Positions 1 to 7,674 of a stretch of 7,674 nucleotides of DNA are shown piece after piece. The notes under the pieces were generated by a model that worked only from the letters and a program-made list of their open reading frames with translations, searched no databases and had not been told where the DNA came from. The translations under genes and the position numbers were made by a program. The stretch lies in IMG/VR virus record IMGVR_UViG_2703719355_000017; one strand, 5' to 3'. Positions within the stretch are counted from its first letter, which is position 1; every line of letters starts with the position of its first letter. This DNA is from a virus (taxonomy: Duplodnaviria > Heunggongvirae > Uroviricota > Caudoviricetes).

Positions 1-426
1 TCAATGCACAGCCACAATATTTCCTGCAGGGCCACCACGATTCATCTGGTTGAAACCAGCGATCGCCACTGCGACAAAATCATCAGCGTCTCTCACCAGT
101 CGTTCCCGCGTCTCCACTAGTTCCCGAAAATAGGCTGAGCTATGGCTGCGCATTCGGGCCACCAGCAGAGGTGGCATTGCTTTTTCGATAGCTGGTAACA
201 ACGCCTGAATTTTTTTAACCGCATCAGGGGTGTCTTTCTCCACCCAGCGGAAAATTTTCTGAGTATTGCGTGCCAGGGCTTCCGGATGGCTGTCGTCATA
301 CAGTTCAGGAAACGTCATACCCAACTCAAAATAAGCCTGGGTTATTCCAGCTGCTGGAACTTTTTCGCCATCAGGACGCGCCCAGGCATTCATCGCCATG
401 CGGATGTGTTCATGCTTGATTTTCAT
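1..426 (-). CDS. ydaT: YdaT-family prophage protein, 141 aa (proposed CII-like regulator)
   Basis: Complete ORF with ATG at 426..424 and TGA at 3..1. Its start overlaps the stop of the upstream HTH gene (ATGA), suggesting translational coupling. Size and position after a YdaS-like gene match the Rac-type ydaS-ydaT pair; N-terminus MKIKHEHI. Family assignment is from memory, not a search. Confidence 0.65.
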   Translation of the reverse strand: MKIKHEHIRMAMNAWARPDGEKVPAAGITQAYFELGMTFPELYDDSHPEALARNTQKIFRWVEKDTPDAVKKIQALLPAIEKAMPPLLVARMRSHSSAYFRELVETRERLVRDADDFVAVAIAGFNQMNRGGPAGNIVAVH

Positions 427-725
427 GAATCAACTCCATCAGATAAGCATGCACTACAATCACCTTCAGCATGAACTACATGTGTTTGCCCCAAACGAAT
501 GCCGCTCGCATACTCAGGCCAAATAAGCTCCCAATCATGGGGTCGTAGCTCCGCCCTACTTACTTGGCCTTCCGTCGCAGATTCGATCATAAGGGCGCGG
601 GTTGGAGATATAGCTGCTCGTCCAGACGCCATTTGCGATAAGTAAGATGGCGATACACCAAGTCTGGCCGCGAATTTCTTAGCATCACCAACCCTCAATG
701 ATTTAATAAACTCTTTTAATGTCAT
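423..725 (-). CDS. ydaS: Cro-like YdaS-family HTH DNA-binding protein, 100 aa
   Basis: ATG at 725..723 with SD GAGG (734..731) 5 nt upstream on the minus strand. HTH-like segment AKKFAARLGVSPSYLSQMASGRAAISPTRALMIESATEG. Divergent from the repressor-like gene. Confidence 0.75.
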   Translation of the reverse strand: MTLKEFIKSLRVGDAKKFAARLGVSPSYLSQMASGRAAISPTRALMIESATEGQVSRAELRPHDWELIWPEYASGIRLGQTHVVHAEGDCSACLSDGVDS

Positions 726-822: not shown

Positions 823-1194
823 ATGCAAAAAAAAGAAATTCGCCGTTTACGTCTCAAGGAGTGGTTTAAAGATAAAACTCTGCCACCCAAAGAGAAGAGC
901 TACCTATCTCAACTAATGAGTGGGAGGGCCTCGTTTGGAGAAAAGGCTGCCAGAAGAATAGAGCAAACATACGGGATGCCGGAAGGGTATCTGGATGCGG
1001 AATACGCAGAACAACCGGAAGTTTCTCCACCACATGCAGGGTTAACGTCTAATCAACTGGAATTATTGCAGATTTTTTCAGCCTTCCCTGAGGATGAGCA
1101 ACGCCAGATAATCAGCGAGTTAAAGCAGAAAAAAGAATCAATGGAAGATCTCATAGCGAGATGGATTGCGGCGCAAAAATGCCGCCGCGCCTGA
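823..1194 (+). CDS. paaR2: CI-like HTH repressor, 123 aa; regulator of the three-component TA module (PaaR2-like)
   Basis: ORF 760..1194, but the ATG at 760 lies inside the operator/promoter. ATG at 823 sits just downstream of the GATAAT -10 and has no SD, consistent with a leaderless mRNA. HTH-like segment EKSYLSQLMSGRASFGEKAARRIEQTYGMPEGYLD. Followed 20 nt later by the antitoxin gene. Confidence 0.7.
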   Translation: MQKKEIRRLRLKEWFKDKTLPPKEKSYLSQLMSGRASFGEKAARRIEQTYGMPEGYLDAEYAEQPEVSPPHAGLTSNQLELLQIFSAFPEDEQRQIISELKQKKESMEDLIARWIAAQKCRRA

Positions 1195-1214: not shown

Positions 1215-1406
1215 ATGAATAGAGCCCTTTCACCAATGGTTTCTGAATTTGAAACCATTGAACAAGAAAACAGTTACAACGAATGGCTGCGTGCGAAAGT
1301 AGCAACGAGCCTTGCAGATCCGCGCCCAGCAATTCCCCATGACGAAGTTGAGCGCAGAATGGCAGAACGCTTTGCTAAAATGCGCAAGGAACGGAGCAAG
1401 CAGTAA
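1215..1406 (+). CDS. paaA2: Small antitoxin, 63 aa (PaaA2-like)
   Basis: ATG at 1215 with SD GGAGG (1206-1210). Charged, probably disordered 63-aa product MNRALSPMVSEFETIEQENSYNEWLRAKVATSLADPRPAIPHDEVERRMAERFAKMRKERSKQ. Stop TAA 1404-1406 lies 1 nt before the toxin ATG. Confidence 0.8.
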   Translation: MNRALSPMVSEFETIEQENSYNEWLRAKVATSLADPRPAIPHDEVERRMAERFAKMRKERSKQ

Positions 1407-1407
1407 A

Positions 1408-1686
1408 ATGTTACCCGTGTTATGGCTTGAAAACGCAGATACCGACCTAGATGATATAGCTAGCTATATTGCTCGTTTCGACATAGATGCGGCTGAACGC
1501 TTATGGCAGCGATTAAGGGGTTGTGTGCTGCCGTTATCCGAACATCCGTATTTATACCCACCAAGCGACAGAGTACCTGGCTTGCGTGAGATTGTAGCCC
1601 ACCCTAACTATATAATTCTATACCGCGTAACAACATCAAGCGTTGAAGTAGTAAACGTGATCCACGCAAGACGCCAGTTTCCCTAA
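1408..1686 (+). CDS. parE2: ParE/RelE-superfamily toxin, 92 aa (ParE2-like)
   Basis: ATG at 1408 immediately after the antitoxin stop. C-terminal signature of the ParE/RelE fold (YIILYRV...VEVVNVIHARRQ). The ORF track start at 1312 is inside the antitoxin gene and is rejected. Confidence 0.85.
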   Translation: MLPVLWLENADTDLDDIASYIARFDIDAAERLWQRLRGCVLPLSEHPYLYPPSDRVPGLREIVAHPNYIILYRVTTSSVEVVNVIHARRQFP

Positions 1687-1756
1687 CTTTCACTACCAAT
1701 AGAAACATAACAACCGCAACGACTTTATCAAAAGCGTTGTGTTTGTTACGCTCCGT

Positions 1757-1805
1757 GGTTTAGTTTTTACTTGACTTAAGTTTAATGTTTATTAAACTAA
1801 AAATA
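1757..1805 (+). promoter_or_regulatory. Second operator/promoter copy (OL/PL-like) downstream of the toxin gene
   Basis: GGTTTAGTTTTT (1757-1768) parallels GGTTTAGTGTTTTT at 735-748. -35 TTGACT (1771-1776), 16-nt spacer, -10 TAAACT (1793-1798). GTTTAATGTTTATTAAAC (1780-1797) matches GTTTAGTGTTTAATAAAC (755-772) at 16 of 18 positions. Confidence 0.45.
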
Positions 1806-1979
1806 CCAACCCACCCCGCCCCACAGAACGCCGGGCAATACTTCGAGTTACCAGGCAGTGGTCAGGGGGGTAAGTAGCCAGCCCGAGGCGTAAGAACATG
1901 ACGGCAGGGTTCAACTTTAATAACTATGCAGCAGGTTTTTGTTCCGCTACCCCGGCGTTAAGGGGAAACAGAGGATTTC

Positions 1980-2318
1980 TCAGTGGGCGAAGTCAAACAT
2001 CAGAATGGAAGGCATCCCAGGATCGGCAAAGAAGCAGCAATGGCGCTTTATATTGACATCAGCGCCATTACCGGACAGGTAAGAGTTATCAGAGCGGTAA
2101 CTAAGCGGTATGCGCCTTTGCTTCAGAAAGGCTCTGGTGAGTGCACCGAAGATACTGTCAACGATTTCGTCATCGAACTGCGAGGACTCATCTTCAGTTA
2201 CAAGGTGACCACAATTTTTGCAGATGGCTCCCGCGAAACTGTCAGAGCCCTGCGGCTTAAAGGATGTGTCAAAGACTTCGCCACCACATTCTGGGCAAGA
2301 AAACTTAATTGTATTCAT
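1980..2318 (-). CDS. Small zinc-ribbon protein, 112 aa from the ATG (function unknown)
   Basis: ATG at 2318..2316; the track's first codon is TTG at 2324. GAGG on the minus strand about 9 nt upstream. N-terminus carries CPECGG-x21-CKNCG (C-x2-C...C-x2-C) followed by an acidic stretch. Preferred over the co-extensive plus-strand ORF, which has more rare Arg codons (AGA/AGG/CGA). The C-terminal half is less protein-like, so true length is uncertain. Confidence 0.5.
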   Translation of the reverse strand: MNTIKFSCPECGGEVFDTSFKPQGSDSFAGAICKNCGHLVTEDESSQFDDEIVDSIFGALTRAFLKQRRIPLSYRSDNSYLSGNGADVNIKRHCCFFADPGMPSILMFDFAH

Positions 2319-2410: not shown

Positions 2411-2629
2411 ATGCAGAAACCAGAACCCACTATCATCGCACCAGGCTATACCGATGATGAACTTTATGAGTGGATGCGCCAGAAAATTAATGCAGCGCAG
2501 GATCTGAAATGGGCCAATGAAGCCAGGGCTAAGCAGGCTGAAAATCTGTCCGCTCTGGAGCAGGATATCACCAGACTGGAAAAAGCAGCGGCATTAAGCA
2601 TTGCCAGAATGATTACATACCCACGTTAA
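2411..2629 (+). CDS. Hypothetical protein, 72 aa, predicted helical/coiled-coil
   Basis: Strong SD AGGAG (2401-2405) 5 nt before ATG 2411. Product MQKPEPTIIAPGYTDDELYEWMRQKINAAQDLKWANEARAKQAENLSALEQDITRLEKAAALSIARMITYPR. No family recognised by eye. Confidence 0.7.
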   Translation: MQKPEPTIIAPGYTDDELYEWMRQKINAAQDLKWANEARAKQAENLSALEQDITRLEKAAALSIARMITYPR

Positions 2630-2651
2630 TAGCTAACCAACGAGGCTAATA

Positions 2652-3026
2652 ATGGAATTTAAAGATTTACCAATGCAATTCCAGGAAATGGCAGCGAATA
2701 TAGTTCGTTCCCAACTGGCGACTCTTGACCTGAGTACCGTAGAAAAAGAAACCATCGATACTATATCCAGTAACGTGCGTCGTGCCTTTATCGGTCTGTA
2801 CGAAGAGAAGCAGCTCTCTGATAACCAGGATTTACATGAAAAATACTTCCTGGATCTAATGGACATCATTAATAAGGGATTTGGCTTGTTAATGAAACAG
2901 AAAGGGATTCGAATGAACCCCCTTGAAAATTACTTCGCAACAAGAAGCATTAATTCCTGTGATTTAAAGCATCCCGCCACAGACGGGAGTGTTACAGCTA
3001 GCCATGAGATTTCGATTAATCATTAA
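2652..3026 (+). CDS. Hypothetical protein, 124 aa
   Basis: SD GAGG (2642-2645) 6 nt before ATG 2652. Starts 22 nt after the previous gene, suggesting an operon. Lower GC than flanking genes by eye. No family recognised. Confidence 0.7.
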   Translation: MEFKDLPMQFQEMAANIVRSQLATLDLSTVEKETIDTISSNVRRAFIGLYEEKQLSDNQDLHEKYFLDLMDIINKGFGLLMKQKGIRMNPLENYFATRSINSCDLKHPATDGSVTASHEISINH

Positions 3027-3114
3027 AATCAATAGCTATTTCAATAAGTGATGCCATCTCGTTGCGTTTTGTTGAATTCATCTTACGTAATACTTCATGT
3101 TGATTAGCACCTTT

Positions 3115-3155
3115 GGCGGCATCAGTTTAATTGCTGGCTGATGTCCGCCCTTTTT
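3115..3155 (+). terminator. Putative rho-independent terminator
   Basis: GC-rich stem GGCGGCATCAG (3115-3125) pairs with CTGATGTCCGCC (3138-3149) with one bulge; 12-nt loop; followed by TTTTT (3151-3155). Lies about 90 nt after the 124-aa gene. Confidence 0.5.
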
Positions 3156-3159
3156 AAAG

Positions 3160-3178
3160 TGAATTTTGTGATGCGGTG
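3160..3178. repeat. Left arm of a 19-bp perfect inverted repeat
   Basis: TGAATTTTGTGATGCGGTG (3160-3178) is the exact reverse complement of 3303-3321. Arms are separated by 124 bp. Confidence 0.9.
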
Positions 3179-3302
3179 AATGCGGCTCAGCGCACGCGGA
3201 ACAGTTAAAAAGGCCAGTTGACTTCCGTATTGGTTCTTATGGGTGGGTTCTCTGTATCCGGCGTTAATTGTTAACTGGTTAACGTCACCTGGAGGCACCA
3301 GG

Positions 3303-3321
3303 CACCGCATCACAAAATTCA
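3303..3321. repeat. Right arm of a 19-bp perfect inverted repeat
   Basis: CACCGCATCACAAAATTCA (3303-3321), reverse complement of 3160-3178. Confidence 0.9.
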
Positions 3322-3338
3322 TTGTTGAGGACGCGATA

Positions 3339-3527
3339 ATGGAAACGTTATTACCAAACGTTAATACGTCTGAAGGTTGCTTTGAAATTGGTGTCAAAAT
3401 CAGTAACCCTGTATTTACTGAAGATGCCATTAATAAGAGAAAACACGAACGGGAGCTATTAAATCAAATATGCATTGTTTCAATGCTGGCCCGTTTACGT
3501 CTGATGCAAAAAGGATACTGGCAATGA
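3339..3527 (+). CDS. Hypothetical small protein, 62 aa
   Basis: ATG 3339 with GAGGA (3327-3331) 7 nt upstream. The longer track ORF from 3243 would start inside the inverted-repeat region and is rejected. Stop TGA 3525-3527 overlaps the next start. Confidence 0.55.
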   Translation: METLLPNVNTSEGCFEIGVKISNPVFTEDAINKRKHERELLNQICIVSMLARLRLMQKGYWQ

Positions 3528-3715
3528 ATACATCATTTGCACTCGTTCTGACGGTTTTTCTTAATACGGGCGAGCCGCTTGACCTTATTGTTGACATACG
3601 TGACTCAATGGAAGAATGCATGGCTGCCGCAGCGGAACAGAAAATTCCCGGTAACTGTTATCCGGTTGATAAAGTTATTCGCATGGATAATAACGAAGTC
3701 CCGGCAGGGCTTTAA
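3524..3715 (+). CDS. Hypothetical small protein, 63 aa, with a short N-terminal hydrophobic segment
   Basis: ATG 3524 overlaps the preceding stop (ATGA), suggesting translational coupling. Product MNTSFALVLTVFLNTGEPLDL... The track ORF start at 3470 is upstream of the coupled ATG. Confidence 0.55.
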   Translation: MNTSFALVLTVFLNTGEPLDLIVDIRDSMEECMAAAAEQKIPGNCYPVDKVIRMDNNEVPAGL

Positions 3716-3805
3716 ACCAGTACCGTAATAAATATCCGGTTTCATTTTTATATGCCTGCAATGGCAGGGATTTGTTCACCCTAAAAATAGTTACGAGGTT
3801 TATCA

Positions 3806-6256
3806 ATGAGCGCTGATAAAGAAGAAATTGCACTATATTACGAAGCCAAAAATGACAAAGTCAGAAAACGCCTTGGGATTAAAGGCGGTTTTTACTGGCG
3901 CACAGCAAAAAAATTATCGATTGCAATATCACGCGGTGTTGTCGCAATGGACGATGCCGGATTTGACGAAGAGGATTTTAAAAAACCTGTTCGCGTCCAT
4001 TTACCCGTTGTGAATGACCTTCCTCCGGAAGGCGTGTTTGATACCGAATTCTGCAACCGATACGAAAAAGGCGGGGAAGATGGTATCACAATGGTACTTA
4101 TCGCGCCCTCTGTTCAGGATAAACCAGCCAGCACTGACAATACCAACGTCAACGGTGAAGACATGACTGAGATTGAGGAGAATATGCTCCTGCCAGTTTC
4201 AGGTCAGATTCTGCCTGTTCGATGGCTGGCGCAACACAACAGCGAAAAACCGATCACGCACGTTTCGCAGGACGAACTGCGCGCATTACATAACGCACAG
4301 GATGAAAAACTTCCCGCCGTTACCGCGCTGGCCATCTCAAATAAAGCAGCGCAACTCGAACCACTGGAAATTCGCGATCTCCACAAACTGGTACGCGACA
4401 CTGACAAAGTTTTCCCTAATCCTGGTAATTCAGACCTGGGACTGATGACCGCTTTTTTCGAAGCATACCTGGGCGCTGACTACACCGATCGCGGTCTGCT
4501 TACAAAAGAGTGGATGAAAGGAAATCGTGTTTCACGCATCACCCGCACGGCTTCCGGTGCTAATGCCGGTGGAGGGAACAAAACCGATCGCAATCCGAAT
4601 TTAGTACACACCTTTGATACGCTGGATGTGGAGATTGCAGCGGCCACACTTCCGATGGATTTTAATATTTATGAAATTCCGGGCAGCGTTTATCGTCGCG
4701 CAAAAGAAGTCGTCCGGAAGAAAGAAAGTCCGTTCAAAGAATGGTCCGCAGCACTTCGCGCAATCCCGGGTATCCTGGATTATTCCCGCGCCGCTATTTT
4801 TGCACTTATCCGGAGCGCACACCCTGAGTTTTATCATTACCCGGGACGCCTTCAGGGGTATATCAACGCCTATTTAACGGAGACTGATCACGAGAACCCT
4901 ACCGAGGAAACTCTCGCTGCTGCACGACATACACCGGAAAAAGATATCCTGGAAGAAGTTAACCGCGAACTGGCTGCTGAACACGAAACAGAAGAAGAAA
5001 AAAATAATGAGGAAAAATCACAACCGTCTGACGCAATGGCAGATGAACAGGCAACGGCTGAAGAAATGGAGCCGGATACAACTGAACATCACCAGGACAC
5101 GCAATCGCTGGATACTCAGGAACAGGTAGATCCAGTTAAACAGGTAAAAGTTACCGCTGACGAAGTAAACAAAATTATGCAGGCAGCCAATATCAGCCAG
5201 CCTGACGCCGATAAGTTACTTGCTGTATCACGTGGTGAATTTGTTGAGGGGATTAGCGCCCCTAATGATCCGAAATGGGTCAAGGGGATCCAGACTCGCG
5301 ATTCTGTGAACCAGAACCAGCATGAATCGGAACGGAACTACCAAAAAGCGGAACAAAACAGCCCAAATGCGTTACAAAACGAGCCAGAAACGAAACAACC
5401 TGAACCAGTAGTGCAACAGGAACCGGAAAAGATCTGCACCGCCTGCGGTCAGAGCGGTGGCGGCAACTGCCCTGATTGTGGTGCGGTGATGGGTGACGCA
5501 ACATACCAGGAAATATTCGATGGAGAGAATCAGCCTGAAGTTCAGGAAAATGATCCGGAGGAAATGGAAGGCACTGCGCATCAGCACAAGGAGAACACTG
5601 GCGGCAATCAGCATCATGCCAGCGATAGTGAAACTGGCGAGGCGTCAGATCCCTTAATTAAGGCGAACGGTCATCATAATCTCACATCCACCAGCAGAGC
5701 GGGGATTCATCTGATGATCGACCTTGAAACCATGGGAAAAAATCCCGATGCCCCGATTATCTCAATAGGTGCAATATTTTTCGATCCGCAAACCGGAGAT
5801 ATGGGACCGGAATTTAGTAAGACTATCGATCTGGAAACTGCTGGCGGAGTCATTGATCGGGACACCATTAAATGGTGGCTTAAACAATCACGCGAAGCGC
5901 AATCTGCCATTATGGCCGATGAAATCCCGTTAGATGATGCACTGTTACAATTGCGGGAATTTATCGACGAAAACTCCGGTGAATTTTTTGTTCATGTCTG
6001 GGGAAATGGAGCCAACTTCGACAACGTAATTTTACGCCGTTCATATGAACGACAGGGCATCCCCTGCCCGTGGCGCTACTGCAACGATCGCGATGTACGC
6101 ACAATTGTTGAACTGGGAAATTCCATTGGCTTTGATGTCAGAATGACTATTCCATTCGAAGGTGTACCTCACAATGCACTCGATGATGCACGTCACCAGG
6201 CAAAACAAGTTTCAGCTATCTGGCAAAAACTGATCCCGAGTCAGGCTGATTTTTAA
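3806..6256 (+). CDS. Large prophage exonuclease-like protein, 816 aa: N-terminal region of unknown function, acidic low-complexity linker, C4 zinc-ribbon motif, C-terminal DEDDh (DnaQ/RNase T-like) 3'-5' exonuclease domain
   Basis: SD GAGG (3795-3798) 7 nt before ATG 3806. DEDDh motifs read directly: Exo I MIDLETMG (D639, E641; nt 5720-5728), Exo II HVWGNGANFDN (D739; nt 6020-6022), Exo III HNALDD (H789, D794; nt 6170-6187). C-x2-C-x7-C-x2-C at residues 544-558 (nt 5435-5479). Acidic E/D/Q/T-rich region at about residues 360-630. Confidence 0.85.
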   Translation: MSADKEEIALYYEAKNDKVRKRLGIKGGFYWRTAKKLSIAISRGVVAMDDAGFDEEDFKKPVRVHLPVVNDLPPEGVFDTEFCNRYEKGGEDGITMVLIAPSVQDKPASTDNTNVNGEDMTEIEENMLLPVSGQILPVRWLAQHNSEKPITHVSQDELRALHNAQDEKLPAVTALAISNKAAQLEPLEIRDLHKLVRDTDKVFPNPGNSDLGLMTAFFEAYLGADYTDRGLLTKEWMKGNRVSRITRTASGANAGGGNKTDRNPNLVHTFDTLDVEIAAATLPMDFNIYEIPGSVYRRAKEVVRKKESPFKEWSAALRAIPGILDYSRAAIFALIRSAHPEFYHYPGRLQGYINAYLTETDHENPTEETLAAARHTPEKDILEEVNRELAAEHETEEEKNNEEKSQPSDAMADEQATAEEMEPDTTEHHQDTQSLDTQEQVDPVKQVKVTADEVNKIMQAANISQPDADKLLAVSRGEFVEGISAPNDPKWVKGIQTRDSVNQNQHESERNYQKAEQNSPNALQNEPETKQPEPVVQQEPEKICTACGQSGGGNCPDCGAVMGDATYQEIFDGENQPEVQENDPEEMEGTAHQHKENTGGNQHHASDSETGEASDPLIKANGHHNLTSTSRAGIHLMIDLETMGKNPDAPIISIGAIFFDPQTGDMGPEFSKTIDLETAGGVIDRDTIKWWLKQSREAQSAIMADEIPLDDALLQLREFIDENSGEFFVHVWGNGANFDNVILRRSYERQGIPCPWRYCNDRDVRTIVELGNSIGFDVRMTIPFEGVPHNALDDARHQAKQVSAIWQKLIPSQADF

Positions 6257-6267
6257 TGTTCAACCGT

Positions 6268-6299
6268 CGCCAGTTGTAGTTGGTATTCTGCAACTGGCG
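6268..6299 (+). other. Perfect 9-bp stem / 14-nt loop hairpin between the exonuclease and xis genes
   Basis: CGCCAGTTG (6268-6276) and CAACTGGCG (6291-6299) are exact reverse complements. No downstream T-run, so not a classical terminator. Lies just upstream of the xis SD GGAG (6305-6308). Confidence 0.4.
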
Positions 6300-6317
6300 C
6301 GTTCCGGAGTGATAACC

Positions 6318-6587
6318 ATGAGCGAACAGTACCTGATAACGCTCGATGAGTGGAAACCCAAACGGTTCAGTCTCCCAATAACAAACACTACCCTGGTGAA
6401 ATACGGAAAACTTGGATACATCGTACCAAGACCACAAAAAATTCGTGGACGTTGGCTGATAGATCGCCGGGCAGTATTTGTTGGACCTGGTGAAACGGGA
6501 ATTGCGCCGGAAATTCATACTGGCGATGATGATGCACTGAAGGAGATTTTAACTCATGTCACCGAGGCCACGAAAAAACAGCACTGA
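6318..6587 (+). CDS. xis: Excisionase (lambda Xis-like), 89 aa
   Basis: ATG 6318 with GGAG 8 nt upstream; the track start at 6309 is a GTG in the same frame. Segment YLITLDEWKPKRFSLPITNTTLVKYGKLGYIVPRPQKIRGRWLIDRRAVFV resembles lambda Xis as recalled. 3' end overlaps the int start by 32 nt, as in lambda. Confidence 0.75.
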   Translation: MSEQYLITLDEWKPKRFSLPITNTTLVKYGKLGYIVPRPQKIRGRWLIDRRAVFVGPGETGIAPEIHTGDDDALKEILTHVTEATKKQH

Positions 6588-7674
6588 CGTAGCCGGTCTT
6601 TACGAAAAGTTTGATCGCAGAACTGGCAGAGTTTACTACCAGTATAAAAACCCTGTGACTGGAAAATTTCACGGACTCGGAACAGACAAAGGCAAAGCTG
6701 AAAGAATCGCTTCCACAGCCAATCAGCGAATAGCTGCAGCAGAAGCCGAATATTTCATGCGCAAAATTGATGAAAGCCCGTCAGCAACAAAACGTCGGGG
6801 TATCAGATTAAAGGCATGGGTTGATCGATATCTGAAAATACAGGACGCGCGGCTGAAAAATGGAGATATTGCAGCTACAACCCACAAAGAAAAAGCGCGA
6901 ATGGCTGCATACCTGGTTTCCCGTCTGGGAAACCACCCATTGAAAGAACTGGAAGTAAGAGACTTTGCATTAATACTGGATGAGTGGCTGGATAAAGACA
7001 TGGTCAGCACAGCGAGAGTAAATCGTGGATTATGGGTTGATATTTATAAAGAAGCACAGCATGCAGGGGAAGTTCCTCCTGGATGGAATCCTCCGGAGGC
7101 TACCCGTAAACCGATCCCTAAAGTAACCAGAGCCAGGCTCACCATGGAAGACTGGCAAAAAATTTACAATGCAACGCCTGAAAAACACTTTATCCGTAAC
7201 GCAATGCTTCTTGCGATTGTTACTGGTCAGCGCCGTGATGACATTTGCCACATGCGTTTTTCAGATGTGTGGAACGAACACTTGCATATCACCCAGGGAA
7301 AAACCGGAATGCGTCTGGCGTTACCGCTTACACTACGCTGTGATGCCATTGGGATAACGTTAAAAGAAGTTATTGATGGGTGCCGAGACAGAATATTAAG
7401 TCCATATCTAATCCATAGTCGGCACCAGAAACAACCGAAGCCGATGAGTAAAGACAACCTGAGCGACTACTTTGCCAAAGCACGGGATCTGGCTGGGATA
7501 ATTCCACCAGCAGGAAAAACTCCGCCAACATTTCATGAACAACGCTCTCTATCAGAACGGCTGTACCGTGCACAGGGTATCGATACAAAAACATTACTAG
7601 GACATAAAGTCCAGGCAACCACCGATCGCTATAACGATACTCGAGGTCAGGAATGGGTTAAGTTGGTTATTTGA
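6556..7674 (+). CDS. int: Tyrosine site-specific integrase, lambda Int family, 372 aa
   Basis: ATG 6556 with SD AGGAG (6541-6545). Basic N-terminal arm-type domain (YYQYKNPVTGKFHGLGTDKGKAERIA). Catalytic-domain motifs VTGQRRDD, QGKTG, PPTFHEQRSLSERLY, LLGHK, and TTDRY with the presumed catalytic Tyr359 (nt 7630-7632). Strongly resembles lambda Int as recalled. Stop TGA at 7672-7674 is the window end. Confidence 0.93.
   Translation: MSPRPRKNSTDVAGLYEKFDRRTGRVYYQYKNPVTGKFHGLGTDKGKAERIASTANQRIAAAEAEYFMRKIDESPSATKRRGIRLKAWVDRYLKIQDARLKNGDIAATTHKEKARMAAYLVSRLGNHPLKELEVRDFALILDEWLDKDMVSTARVNRGLWVDIYKEAQHAGEVPPGWNPPEATRKPIPKVTRARLTMEDWQKIYNATPEKHFIRNAMLLAIVTGQRRDDICHMRFSDVWNEHLHITQGKTGMRLALPLTLRCDAIGITLKEVIDGCRDRILSPYLIHSRHQKQPKPMSKDNLSDYFAKARDLAGIIPPAGKTPPTFHEQRSLSERLYRAQGIDTKTLLGHKVQATTDRYNDTRGQEWVKLVI

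Follow-up and report, generated by a model that had tools for sequence, protein, structure and literature searches.

A probable PL/OL element of a CP-933P-type lambdoid prophage, followed by a conserved leader RNA

The segment from 1757 to 1805 is, with high confidence, the leftward early promoter/operator (PL/OL) of a lambdoid prophage of the CP-933P/Sp12 type, and would be silenced by the PaaR2 repressor in the lysogen. It lies in a window (the whole 7,674-nucleotide stretch of viral DNA that was analysed) which the ORF map and profile searches define as a lambdoid segment extending from the immunity region to the integrase. Judged by sequence identity, it is the PL933P/OL element of CP-933P, which was already published, named and assayed in 2021. 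The assignment draws on results obtained here, namely the identity to PL933P, the enrichment of an operator motif, the inverted relation between PR and PL, and the co-inheritance of operator and repressor. Downstream of PL we found a leader RNA, conserved among prophages with different repressors, that is tentatively proposed to be a new family.

The promoter, its operator palindromes and the published element

Direct reading of the sequence and a consensus scan place TTGACT-N16-TAAACT at 1771-1798 on the plus strand. Both of its hexamers, the -35 TTGACT (1771-1776, plus strand) and the -10 TAAACT (1793-1798, plus strand), recur as the hexamers of the ydaS promoter on the minus strand, the -35 at 783-778 and the -10 at 759-754. 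The promoter-distal palindrome, GTTTAGTTTTTACTTGAC (1758-1775), with a perfect left half and a degenerate right half, overlaps the -35 hexamer. The promoter-proximal palindrome, GTTTAATGTTTATTAAAC (1780-1797), has perfect 7-bp arms around a 4-bp centre, fills the PL spacer and overlaps the -10 hexamer. GTTTAATGTTTATTAAAC is identical to GTTTAGTGTTTAATAAAC at 755-772 in 16 of 18 positions (17/19 counting the preceding A), and GGTTTAGT at 1757-1764 matches 735-742. The original prediction had named both the plus-strand promoter embedded in operator motifs and the 16-of-18 match, and both were found.

The consensus of both 18-bp palindromes is GTTTAnT-N4-AnTAAAC. When GTTTANT-N4-ANTAAAC was searched for with up to 2 mismatches, 4 sites were detected in the 7674 bp (755, 794, 1758 and 1780), compared with 0.37 by chance, and none of 200 shuffles reached 4. 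All four fall in the ydaS/paaR2 intergenic region (OR) or in OL, and none elsewhere in the window. The exact heptamer GTTTAGT occurs 4 times (736, 755, 794 and 1758; 0.86 expected), and half-sites with up to 1 mismatch number 8 in 705-811 and 5 in 1758-1802, compared with 19 in all the rest of the window (~7500 bp). In OL we count two complete palindromes and one further half-site (1796-1802), where the publication counts OL1-3.

Comparison of the OR region with 1757-1805, as proposed with the original prediction, revealed shared palindromes, the same hexamers and an inverted 12-mer: TACTTGACTTAA (1768-1779), around the -35, is the exact reverse complement of 775-786. The minus-strand ydaS promoter (PR) reads TTGACT-N18-TAAACT at 783-754, so its spacer is 18 nt as against 16 nt in PL. 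Because the 12-mer is an exact reverse complement and the hexamers are shared, the element is an inverted (mirror) copy of the leftward promoter PR, facing outward, more than a direct copy of the operator motifs. The description of the element as a near copy of the operator motifs thus holds for the motifs, but the closest relation is the inverted one. A generic promoter scan returned 10 sites in the window against 11.2 expected from shuffles, and hence the PL call leans on context and on the published assay. The transcript is predicted to start at 1805-1806 (plus strand), 7 nt past the -10 hexamer; it is within 1798-1812 that the window becomes homologous to prophages of other immunity.

The window is ~98% identical to E. 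coli O157:H7 and its relatives (megablast), in which this gene order is that of the cryptic prophage CP-933P/Sp12. The element is identical to the O157:H7 genome at 49/49 positions and the OR region at 96/97, and 4 substitutions lie just upstream, at 1749-1756. The same locus was studied in EDL933 by Jurenas et al. (2021; mBio 12:e02947-21, PMC8630535), who named it PL933P, with OL1-3. A PL933P-gfp fusion was active, and arabinose-induced PaaR2 or YdaS repressed it ~100-fold, in agreement with the repressor control originally predicted for this promoter; basal PaaR2 was already enough for repression, and YdaT was without effect (PMC8630535). The EMSA, footprinting and 5' RACE experiments of that work cover the OR region, and looping enters it as the motivation for seeking an OL, given that PaaR2 octamerises in solution (PMC8630535). 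Primers F-PL-SacI and R-PL-BamHI of the same paper map with 0 mismatches to 1687-1707 (plus strand) and 1783-1804 (minus strand), and delimit 1687-1804 (plus strand) as the equivalent of the PL933P-gfp insert. Since the design of the PRM/PR primers puts the BamHI side toward gfp, the plus-strand orientation was the one assayed. Repression of PL by the PaaR2 variant of the window would be expected, as carried over from the identical published promoter sequence.

The window and CP-933P share paaR2-paaA2-parE2 upstream of the promoter; downstream of it, both have the exonuclease gene, preceded by the zinc-ribbon gene, ydfC and dicB. They differ in the host genome, here a 98% relative of EDL933, and in the integrase, whose frame is open in the window (372 codons to the window end) but is annotated as a frameshifted, incomplete pseudogene in O157:H7.

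The immunity region and the genes downstream of PL

To the left of the 97-bp ydaS/paaR2 intergenic region lie ydaS (423-725, minus strand), which codes for the Cro analogue that also represses PL933P in the published assay, and ydaT (1-426, minus strand), whose product matches PDB 3c4r/8bt1. The intergenic region is the OR region (726-822), with divergent PR (minus strand) and PRM (plus strand); it carries palindromes at 755-772 and 794-811 and half-sites at 736 and 774-780, and shares the operator motif with OL. To its right, paaR2 (823-1194, plus strand) codes for the CI-analogue repressor, which is identical to the O157:H7 protein at 122/124 positions and differs from it at residues 66-67. 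Its N-terminal domain matches PDB 7nkv/8c3k (E 1e-39 against 7nkv). PaaR2 is a short repressor (123 residues) in which a profile search detected no LexA/S24-type domain, and its C-terminal part shows weak similarity to the DicA model (28.8 bits, cut-off 101). A full-text literature search for the codes 7NKV, 8C3K and 8C3L, which are structures of the PaaR2 N-terminal domain, found no paper.

The toxin-antitoxin genes paaA2 (1215-1406, plus strand; Pfam PF21217, the PaaA2 'stability determinant', 33 residues) and parE2 (1408-1686, plus strand; the product matches PDB 5cw7 with E 9e-59) sit at a rexAB-like position, with the repressor gene on one side and OL on the other. The identities of the genes from ydaT and ydaS to paaR2, paaA2 and parE2 are supported by Pfam, NCBIfam and PDB matches, by synteny with O157:H7 and by 98-100% protein identity. 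Between the parE2 stop codon and OL there is a stable hairpin (1708-1749, plus strand; z = -2.84) with no canonical U tract, where transcription of the paaR2 operon may end.

Every gene between 2411 and the window end has the orientation of PL. After the promoter, the minus strand carries a zinc-ribbon ORF (1980-2318) that matches NCBIfam ECs_2282 with 54.6 bits (cut-off 37); owing to a differing stop codon, it has 112 codons in the window and 66 in O157:H7 and phage Evi. It is overlapped by a plus-strand ORF (1983-2339) with an AGAGGA-N7-GTG start that is open in the window, in O157:H7 and in phage Evi. A codon-position test between the two ORFs had 7-8 substitutions only to work with, and the NCBIfam match favours the minus-strand ORF. 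On the plus strand, ydfC and then a PHROG-6937 gene lie ahead of a DicF-like sRNA (3104-3150, plus strand), whose Rfam score is below the gathering threshold and which contains a terminator-like hairpin with a U tract at 3118-3145. The cell-division inhibitor gene dicB (3339-3527), the RecE-like exonuclease gene (3806-6256), the excisionase gene xis (6309-6587) and the integrase gene int (6556 to the window end at 7674) follow, all on the plus strand; a DUF1482/ydfD-like gene lies on the same strand between dicB and the exonuclease gene. The original prediction was therefore right that the site points toward accessory genes, the exonuclease, xis and int, and that transcription from it would run antisense to the zinc-ribbon gene. 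A boxA with up to 1 mismatch is absent from the window, and profile searches of downstream ORFs gave no match to an N-like protein.

The cargo of this operon (ydfC, the DicF-like RNA and dicB, then the DUF1482/ydfD-like gene and the recE-like exonuclease gene) is homologous to that downstream of the dicB-operon promoter of Qin in E. coli K-12 (DicA/DicC), and the logic is the same in that an immunity repressor silences a division-inhibitor operon. The repressor and operators differ, and the antisense zinc-ribbon gene here replaces ydfA and ydfB. The dicB gene of Qin, located 3' of DicF, owes its expression to an upstream promoter repressed by DicA.

The order of genes and sites (ydaT and ydaS leftward, OR, paaR2-paaA2-parE2 rightward, the element at 1757-1805, then accessory genes, exonuclease, xis and int), as far as it can be read from the DNA, matches the lambda paradigm. 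As in lambda, OL/PL is located 3' of the cI-type operon, has operators of the OR sequence type that overlap the -35 and -10, is repressed by the CI analogue and the Cro analogue, is directed at recombination, xis and int genes, and marks one edge of an exchangeable immunity region. Of the structural features of a lambdoid OL/PL, the window shows the promoter overlapped by operators, operators of the OR type confined to OR and OL, and an operator type that co-varies with the repressor; the N/nut module was looked for and not found. The differences are that the operator GTTTAnT-N4-AnTAAAC is unrelated to that of lambda; that two clear sites are found here but three 17-mers in lambda; that OR and OL lie ~1 kb apart here, compared with ~2.3-2.4 kb in lambda; that a toxin-antitoxin pair takes the place of rexAB; that neither an N gene nor nutL was found here; and that PaaR2 is a short protein in which no LexA/S24-type domain was detected. 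With the gene order, the confinement of the motif to OR and this site, and the publication of an identical PL933P, the OL/PL-like identity first proposed by analogy with lambda stands.

Megablast matches in thousands of genomes begin at 1798-1812 or end at ~434. These breakpoints of homology place OL/PL inside an exchangeable cassette, and 435-1800 (ydaS, OR, paaR2, paaA2, parE2 and OL/PL) behaves as such an immunity cassette. Related prophages with other repressors have the same layout, each with a repeat of its own that is found at OR and again at OL. The repeat type of E. coli N63 is ACAATWAAAAACTGT-N9-ACAGTTTTTWATTGT, found as ACAATAAAAAACTGT-N9-ACAGTTTTTTATTGT at OR and as ACAATTAAAAACTGT-N9-ACAGTTTTTAATTGT at OL over a TTGACA promoter. 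The Rac-like phage vB_EcoS-666R9 has AGTACAT-type repeats, and the phage record pPE4 has TCACA-N5-GTGA repeats, in each case at OR and OL; strain NR2550, with a LexA-family CI, has the same layout of the immunity region. The operator thus co-varies with the repressor, as a functional OL predicts.

A conserved leader RNA downstream of PL

The ~165 nt that follow the predicted start (1803-1968) are common to prophages that differ in immunity; they occur in thousands of E. coli genomes as well as in 12 phage records. The leader directly follows PL in Rac-, Qin- and CP-933P-type prophages, whatever their repressor; in the Rac prophage of K-12 it is found between racR and ydaG (111.8 bits). In a species survey, one genome per species was scanned with the 19-mer TAAGTAGCCAGCCNGAGGC, and copies were detected in Escherichia/Shigella, Serratia, Pectobacterium, Superficieibacter, Symbiopectobacterium and Arsenophonus/Phlomobacter. 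Several of the surveyed genomes had many leader copies, and each copy examined begins a few nt after a locus-specific promoter-like site. A copy placed between argW and intS of K-12 KplE1 was discarded, since the coordinates were strain-specific and the true site is the racR-ydaG interval of Rac.

The structured leader of the PL transcript, as defined by covariation, extends over 1809-1907 (plus strand) and scores 103 bits with a covariance model. It consists of one irregular hairpin with the helices P1 (1813-1817/1865-1871), P2 (1821-1824/1858-1861) and P3 (1830-1835/1851-1856), a 15-nt loop, CAAUACUUCGAGUUA (1836-1850), and a conserved tail, UAAGUAGCCAGCCCGAGGC..GAACAUGACGGC, 3' of the hairpin, all on the plus strand. 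Across the family the 15-nt loop is of an invariant type, CAAUACNNCGAGUUA, and the hairpin is followed by the near-invariant UAAGUAGCCAGCCYGAGGC-N4-GAACAUGACGGC. The three-helix hairpin was obtained in almost all folds, both by single-sequence MFE folding of 32 aligned leaders and by constrained folding of 41 distinct sequences.

From an ungapped, structure-blind alignment of 14 equal-length members (A5), RNAalifold recovered the three helices de novo; it predicted 15 pairs, 12 of them in the helices, and 11 of the 15 are compensatory. In A5, 83.2% of the cells pair, compared with 62.0 +/- 1.8 in shuffles, and the covariation score is 0.570 against 0.189; none of 500 shuffles reached 0.570, and slid controls gave at most 0.117. 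In an N-padded, structure-guided alignment of 33 members (A4), which we fitted to the structure, 17 of 18 pairs had double-sided changes. When all leaders were aligned with MAFFT alone, the stems were misaligned and RNAalifold returned a 3-bp hairpin only. Folded singly, the 171-nt leader has an ordinary energy (z = +0.47), and the evidence for structure is therefore covariation and not stability. The covariance model, R1, was built from A5. It gave 48-113 bits on complete leader copies and 48-67 bits on complete Arsenophonus/Phlomobacter copies outside the training set; two incomplete copies, either truncated or interrupted by the end of a contig, scored 38-42 bits.

A search of the leader against Rfam 15 gave no match at E <= 1, a full-text literature search with its conserved 12-mer returned unrelated papers only, and the RacR paper (PMC11879457) makes no mention of ydaG, ydaF or the leader. 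The leader resembles putL of HK022, a cis-acting antiterminator RNA, in being a structured RNA with which the leftward early transcript of a lambdoid phage starts, directly downstream of PL; it differs in that putL has two stem-loops and the leader a single hairpin of three helices, capped by a conserved loop of 15 nt. The proposal that it is a put-like antiterminator was rejected: R1 had no match at putL or putR, which were also read directly, and the best HK022 hit (13.3 bits, E 0.35) falls inside a tail gene. Likewise, an assignment of the CA-rich 5' end to AgvB or another prophage anti-sRNA was discarded, as these are sRNAs of 51-60 nt at other positions (e.g., downstream of PR'), with Rfam families of their own that gave no match.

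A small upstream ORF (1898-2056, plus strand) begins at a GAGG-N9-AUG ACG GC start that is conserved in the leader family. GAGG-N9-AUG, of which the GAGG belongs to the conserved tail, reads as a Shine-Dalgarno sequence and start codon, and the length of the ORF varies from 4 to 52 codons. A second small hairpin is present at 1950-1965, and its stem, by eye, changes across genera (CCCC/GGGG, GCC/GGC, GCCG/CGGC and GCCAG/CUGGC).

In Arsenophonus and in some Symbiopectobacterium copies the leader is followed by a boxA (CGCUCUUUAAC), and N-like proteins (phrog_271) are encoded further downstream in both genera. A boxB-like hairpin with a GAAAAA loop is present in Arsenophonus copies, and a boxC-like UUUUGGGGUGUG in Arsenophonus and Symbiopectobacterium; by comparison with lambda, we take these elements to be nut boxes. 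As the leader co-occurs with N and nutL in these genera, it is not simply a substitute for N.

We tentatively propose, with slightly less than even confidence, that 1809-1907 represents an apparently undescribed family of structured leader RNAs and possibly a new cis-regulatory element of the early-left operon. Such a leader could act on transcript elongation, Rho-dependent silencing, RNA processing or translation in this operon. Candidate roles that we infer are Rho-dependent silencing of kil/dicB, an RNase III or 5'-end stability element, a site for an elongation-modifying factor, and control coupled to the upstream ORF. Cardinale and colleagues reportedly found in 2008 that Rho is required to keep the rac kil gene silent.

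Proposed regulation and reach of PL transcription

In the proposed mechanism, TTGACT-16-TAAACT would be used as a sigma-70 promoter that fires on the plus strand, with a probable start at ~1805, and transcription would leave the immunity region toward the accessory, dicF-dicB, exonuclease, xis and int genes, and may reach xis-int. The two 18-bp palindromes, of the same type as those of OR ~1 kb away, would act as operators that cover the -35, the spacer and the -10. In the lysogenic state, PaaR2 presumably occupies both palindromes directly and would block RNA polymerase; YdaS could likewise occupy them and block RNA polymerase. The palindrome centres are at 763.5 and 802.5 in OR and at 1766.5 and 1788.5 in OL, ~1.0 kb apart, and PaaR2 octamers may therefore loop OL to OR.

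This pairing of palindromes, together with the octamerisation of PaaR2 in solution that was given as the reason to look for an OL (PMC8630535), would also be expected if the element were mainly an auxiliary operator, that is, a second anchor for PaaR2 octamers in a lambda-like loop with OR, promoter activity being secondary. Such an anchor would tighten PR repression and PRM autoregulation, and is compatible with a promoter role. We consider it unlikely to be the main function, because the promoter is strong enough for a 100-fold dynamic range in the reporter (PMC8630535), and because the conserved leader and co-oriented genes follow the promoter in every relative. It is very improbable that the similarity arose by chance in AT-rich DNA or is left over, without function, from a duplication. 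AT-rich intergenic DNA does yield many weak promoter-like matches, as the scan with no excess over shuffles illustrates, but the palindrome and half-site statistics, the perfect conservation of the element beside a variable flank, the function seen in the published reporter (PMC8630535) and the parallel OR/OL pairs of unrelated immunity types all argue against it. Equally hard to credit is that the site, which adjoins parE2, is the autoregulatory operator of paaA2-parE2 and is bound by the toxin-antitoxin complex in the classical type II style: it is downstream of these genes and faces away from them, the 33-residue PF21217 match of PaaA2 contains no DNA-binding domain, and the published work assigns regulation of the toxin-antitoxin genes to PaaR2, YdaS and YdaT (PMC8630535).

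A more substantial alternative concerns how far transcription proceeds. PL may be real but most transcripts may stop early, either within the leader or on reaching the DicF-like terminator, and xis-int would then not be effectively under PL control; we regard this as a plausible minority view. It is consistent with the lack of a boxA/nut site and an N-like gene among our findings in the window, with the terminator-like hairpin and U tract inside the DicF-like element, with possible convergent transcription from the zinc-ribbon gene, and with the integrase being a pseudogene in O157:H7. On the other hand, the genes of 2411-7674 are all co-oriented with short gaps, and the conserved leader could itself favour read-through. 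Moreover, because dicB of Qin is expressed from a promoter upstream of DicF, read-through past DicF does occur there.

We conclude that the PL/OL element was rediscovered here from raw sequence, which validates a sequence-only reading of lambdoid switch architecture. Two questions are raised by it: whether OL and OR are brought together by PaaR2 over a toxin-antitoxin operon of just 1 kb, and how a prophage that lacks N transcribes past the DicF terminator to dicB, the exonuclease gene, xis and int. The leader, which precedes the toxicity genes kil and dicB of the early-left operon and is found in thousands of E. coli genomes, that of K-12 with its Rac prophage among them, is a more promising lead than the promoter.

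A conserved leader RNA directly downstream of PL

The first ~100 nt of the PL transcript (1809-1907, + strand) can be folded into a hairpin of three helices whose loop reads CAAUACNNCGAGUUA. A conserved tail comes after the hairpin, and the fold is backed by conservation and strong covariation. Its counterpart in the K-12 Rac prophage lies between racR and ydaG (1506-1603 of comparison locus L053). The leader was found in at least six genera of Enterobacterales, and it keeps its position directly 3′ of PL in prophages carrying many different repressors. No match was obtained with Rfam or with the HK022 put sites, and a literature search with the leader sequence string returned none. Short contigs from bins assigned to Candidatus Nanosynbacter (L042) and to Collinsella (L043) also contain an E. 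coli-type leader with its promoter; they probably represent binning contamination. In the record named Actinobacillus phage vB_Apl-pPE4 (L005), the genes ydaS, ydaT, kil and recE are found in a Rac-like region.

In the Arsenophonus copies and some Symbiopectobacterium copies, a boxA is present 20-50 nt past the leader (comparison loci L010, 1328-1338; L033, 4500-4510 and 7179-7189; L020, 3048-3058; and others). The Arsenophonus copies also have a boxB-like hairpin with a GAAAAA loop, and in both genera a boxC-like motif comes next and N-like proteins (phrog_271) are encoded farther downstream. None of these, i.e., boxA, boxB-like hairpin, boxC-like motif or N-like protein, was found with the E. 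coli leader copies, the window included.

At the leader end, GAGG-N9-AUG ACG GC (1885-1905, + strand) is conserved among relatives and resembles the initiation site of a very small upstream ORF, the candidate at 1898-2056 (+ strand). The length of this ORF varies from 4 to 52 codons among relatives, and in E. coli N63 it continues in frame into a DUF1391 (ydfA-like) gene. A second small hairpin, CCCC-GGCGUUAA-GGGG (1950-1965, + strand), lies just 5′ of the point (~1968) at which homology to other prophages ends. Between genera its stem varies (GCC/GGC, GCCG/CGGC, GCCAG/CUGGC), and in relatives the first gene of the PL operon has its ribosome-binding site right next to this hairpin.

ORFs and candidate RNAs beyond the leader

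Two candidate ORFs overlap fully at 1980-2339. A stop-codon difference at ~2120 gives the zinc-ribbon ORF on the - strand, within this interval, a length of 112 codons in the window and of 66 codons in O157:H7 and phage Evi. The + strand candidate (1983-2339; AGAGGA-N7-GTG start) has an uninterrupted frame in the window, O157:H7 and Evi alike, and of the two ORFs it is the one that the phage Evi annotation lists.

Farther downstream, two sub-threshold Rfam matches were detected on the + strand: DicF (3104-3150; 35.1 bits, E = 8e-5), which contains a terminator-like hairpin (3118-3145, + strand), and STnc100 (3148-3371; 34 bits, E = 1.4e-4), which extends into the start of dicB (3339). The integrase ORF (6556-7674, + strand) runs for 372 codons with no stop before the window end, whereas the annotation of O157:H7 treats its integrase as a pseudogene, frameshifted and incomplete. 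Judged from this open frame, the window prophage may have undergone less decay than CP-933P.

The immunity cassette and a second version of unrelated sequence

The interval from the stop codon of parE2 to OL contains a stable hairpin (1708-1749, + strand; z = -2.84). It has no adjacent U tract. In the relatives N63 and pPE4, this place is taken by canonical intrinsic terminators.

Homology of the cassette breaks at ~434, the ydaS/ydaT junction, and at ~1798-1812, the PL start. The block formed by ydaS, the repressor, the TA genes and the two sets of operators moves as a unit; ydaT, the analogue of CII, and the PL leader are common to different immunity types.

E. coli N63 carries a second cassette (3011-4571 of locus L002), unrelated in sequence to that of the window. 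Its order is Cro-like gene, 133-aa HTH repressor, RelB/PaaA-like antitoxin, ParE-family toxin and OL/PL, and both of its operators carry a large inverted repeat specific to this cassette. Since this cassette of unrelated sequence has the same architecture, a repressor-linked three-gene TA system within an immunity region is a recurrent design.
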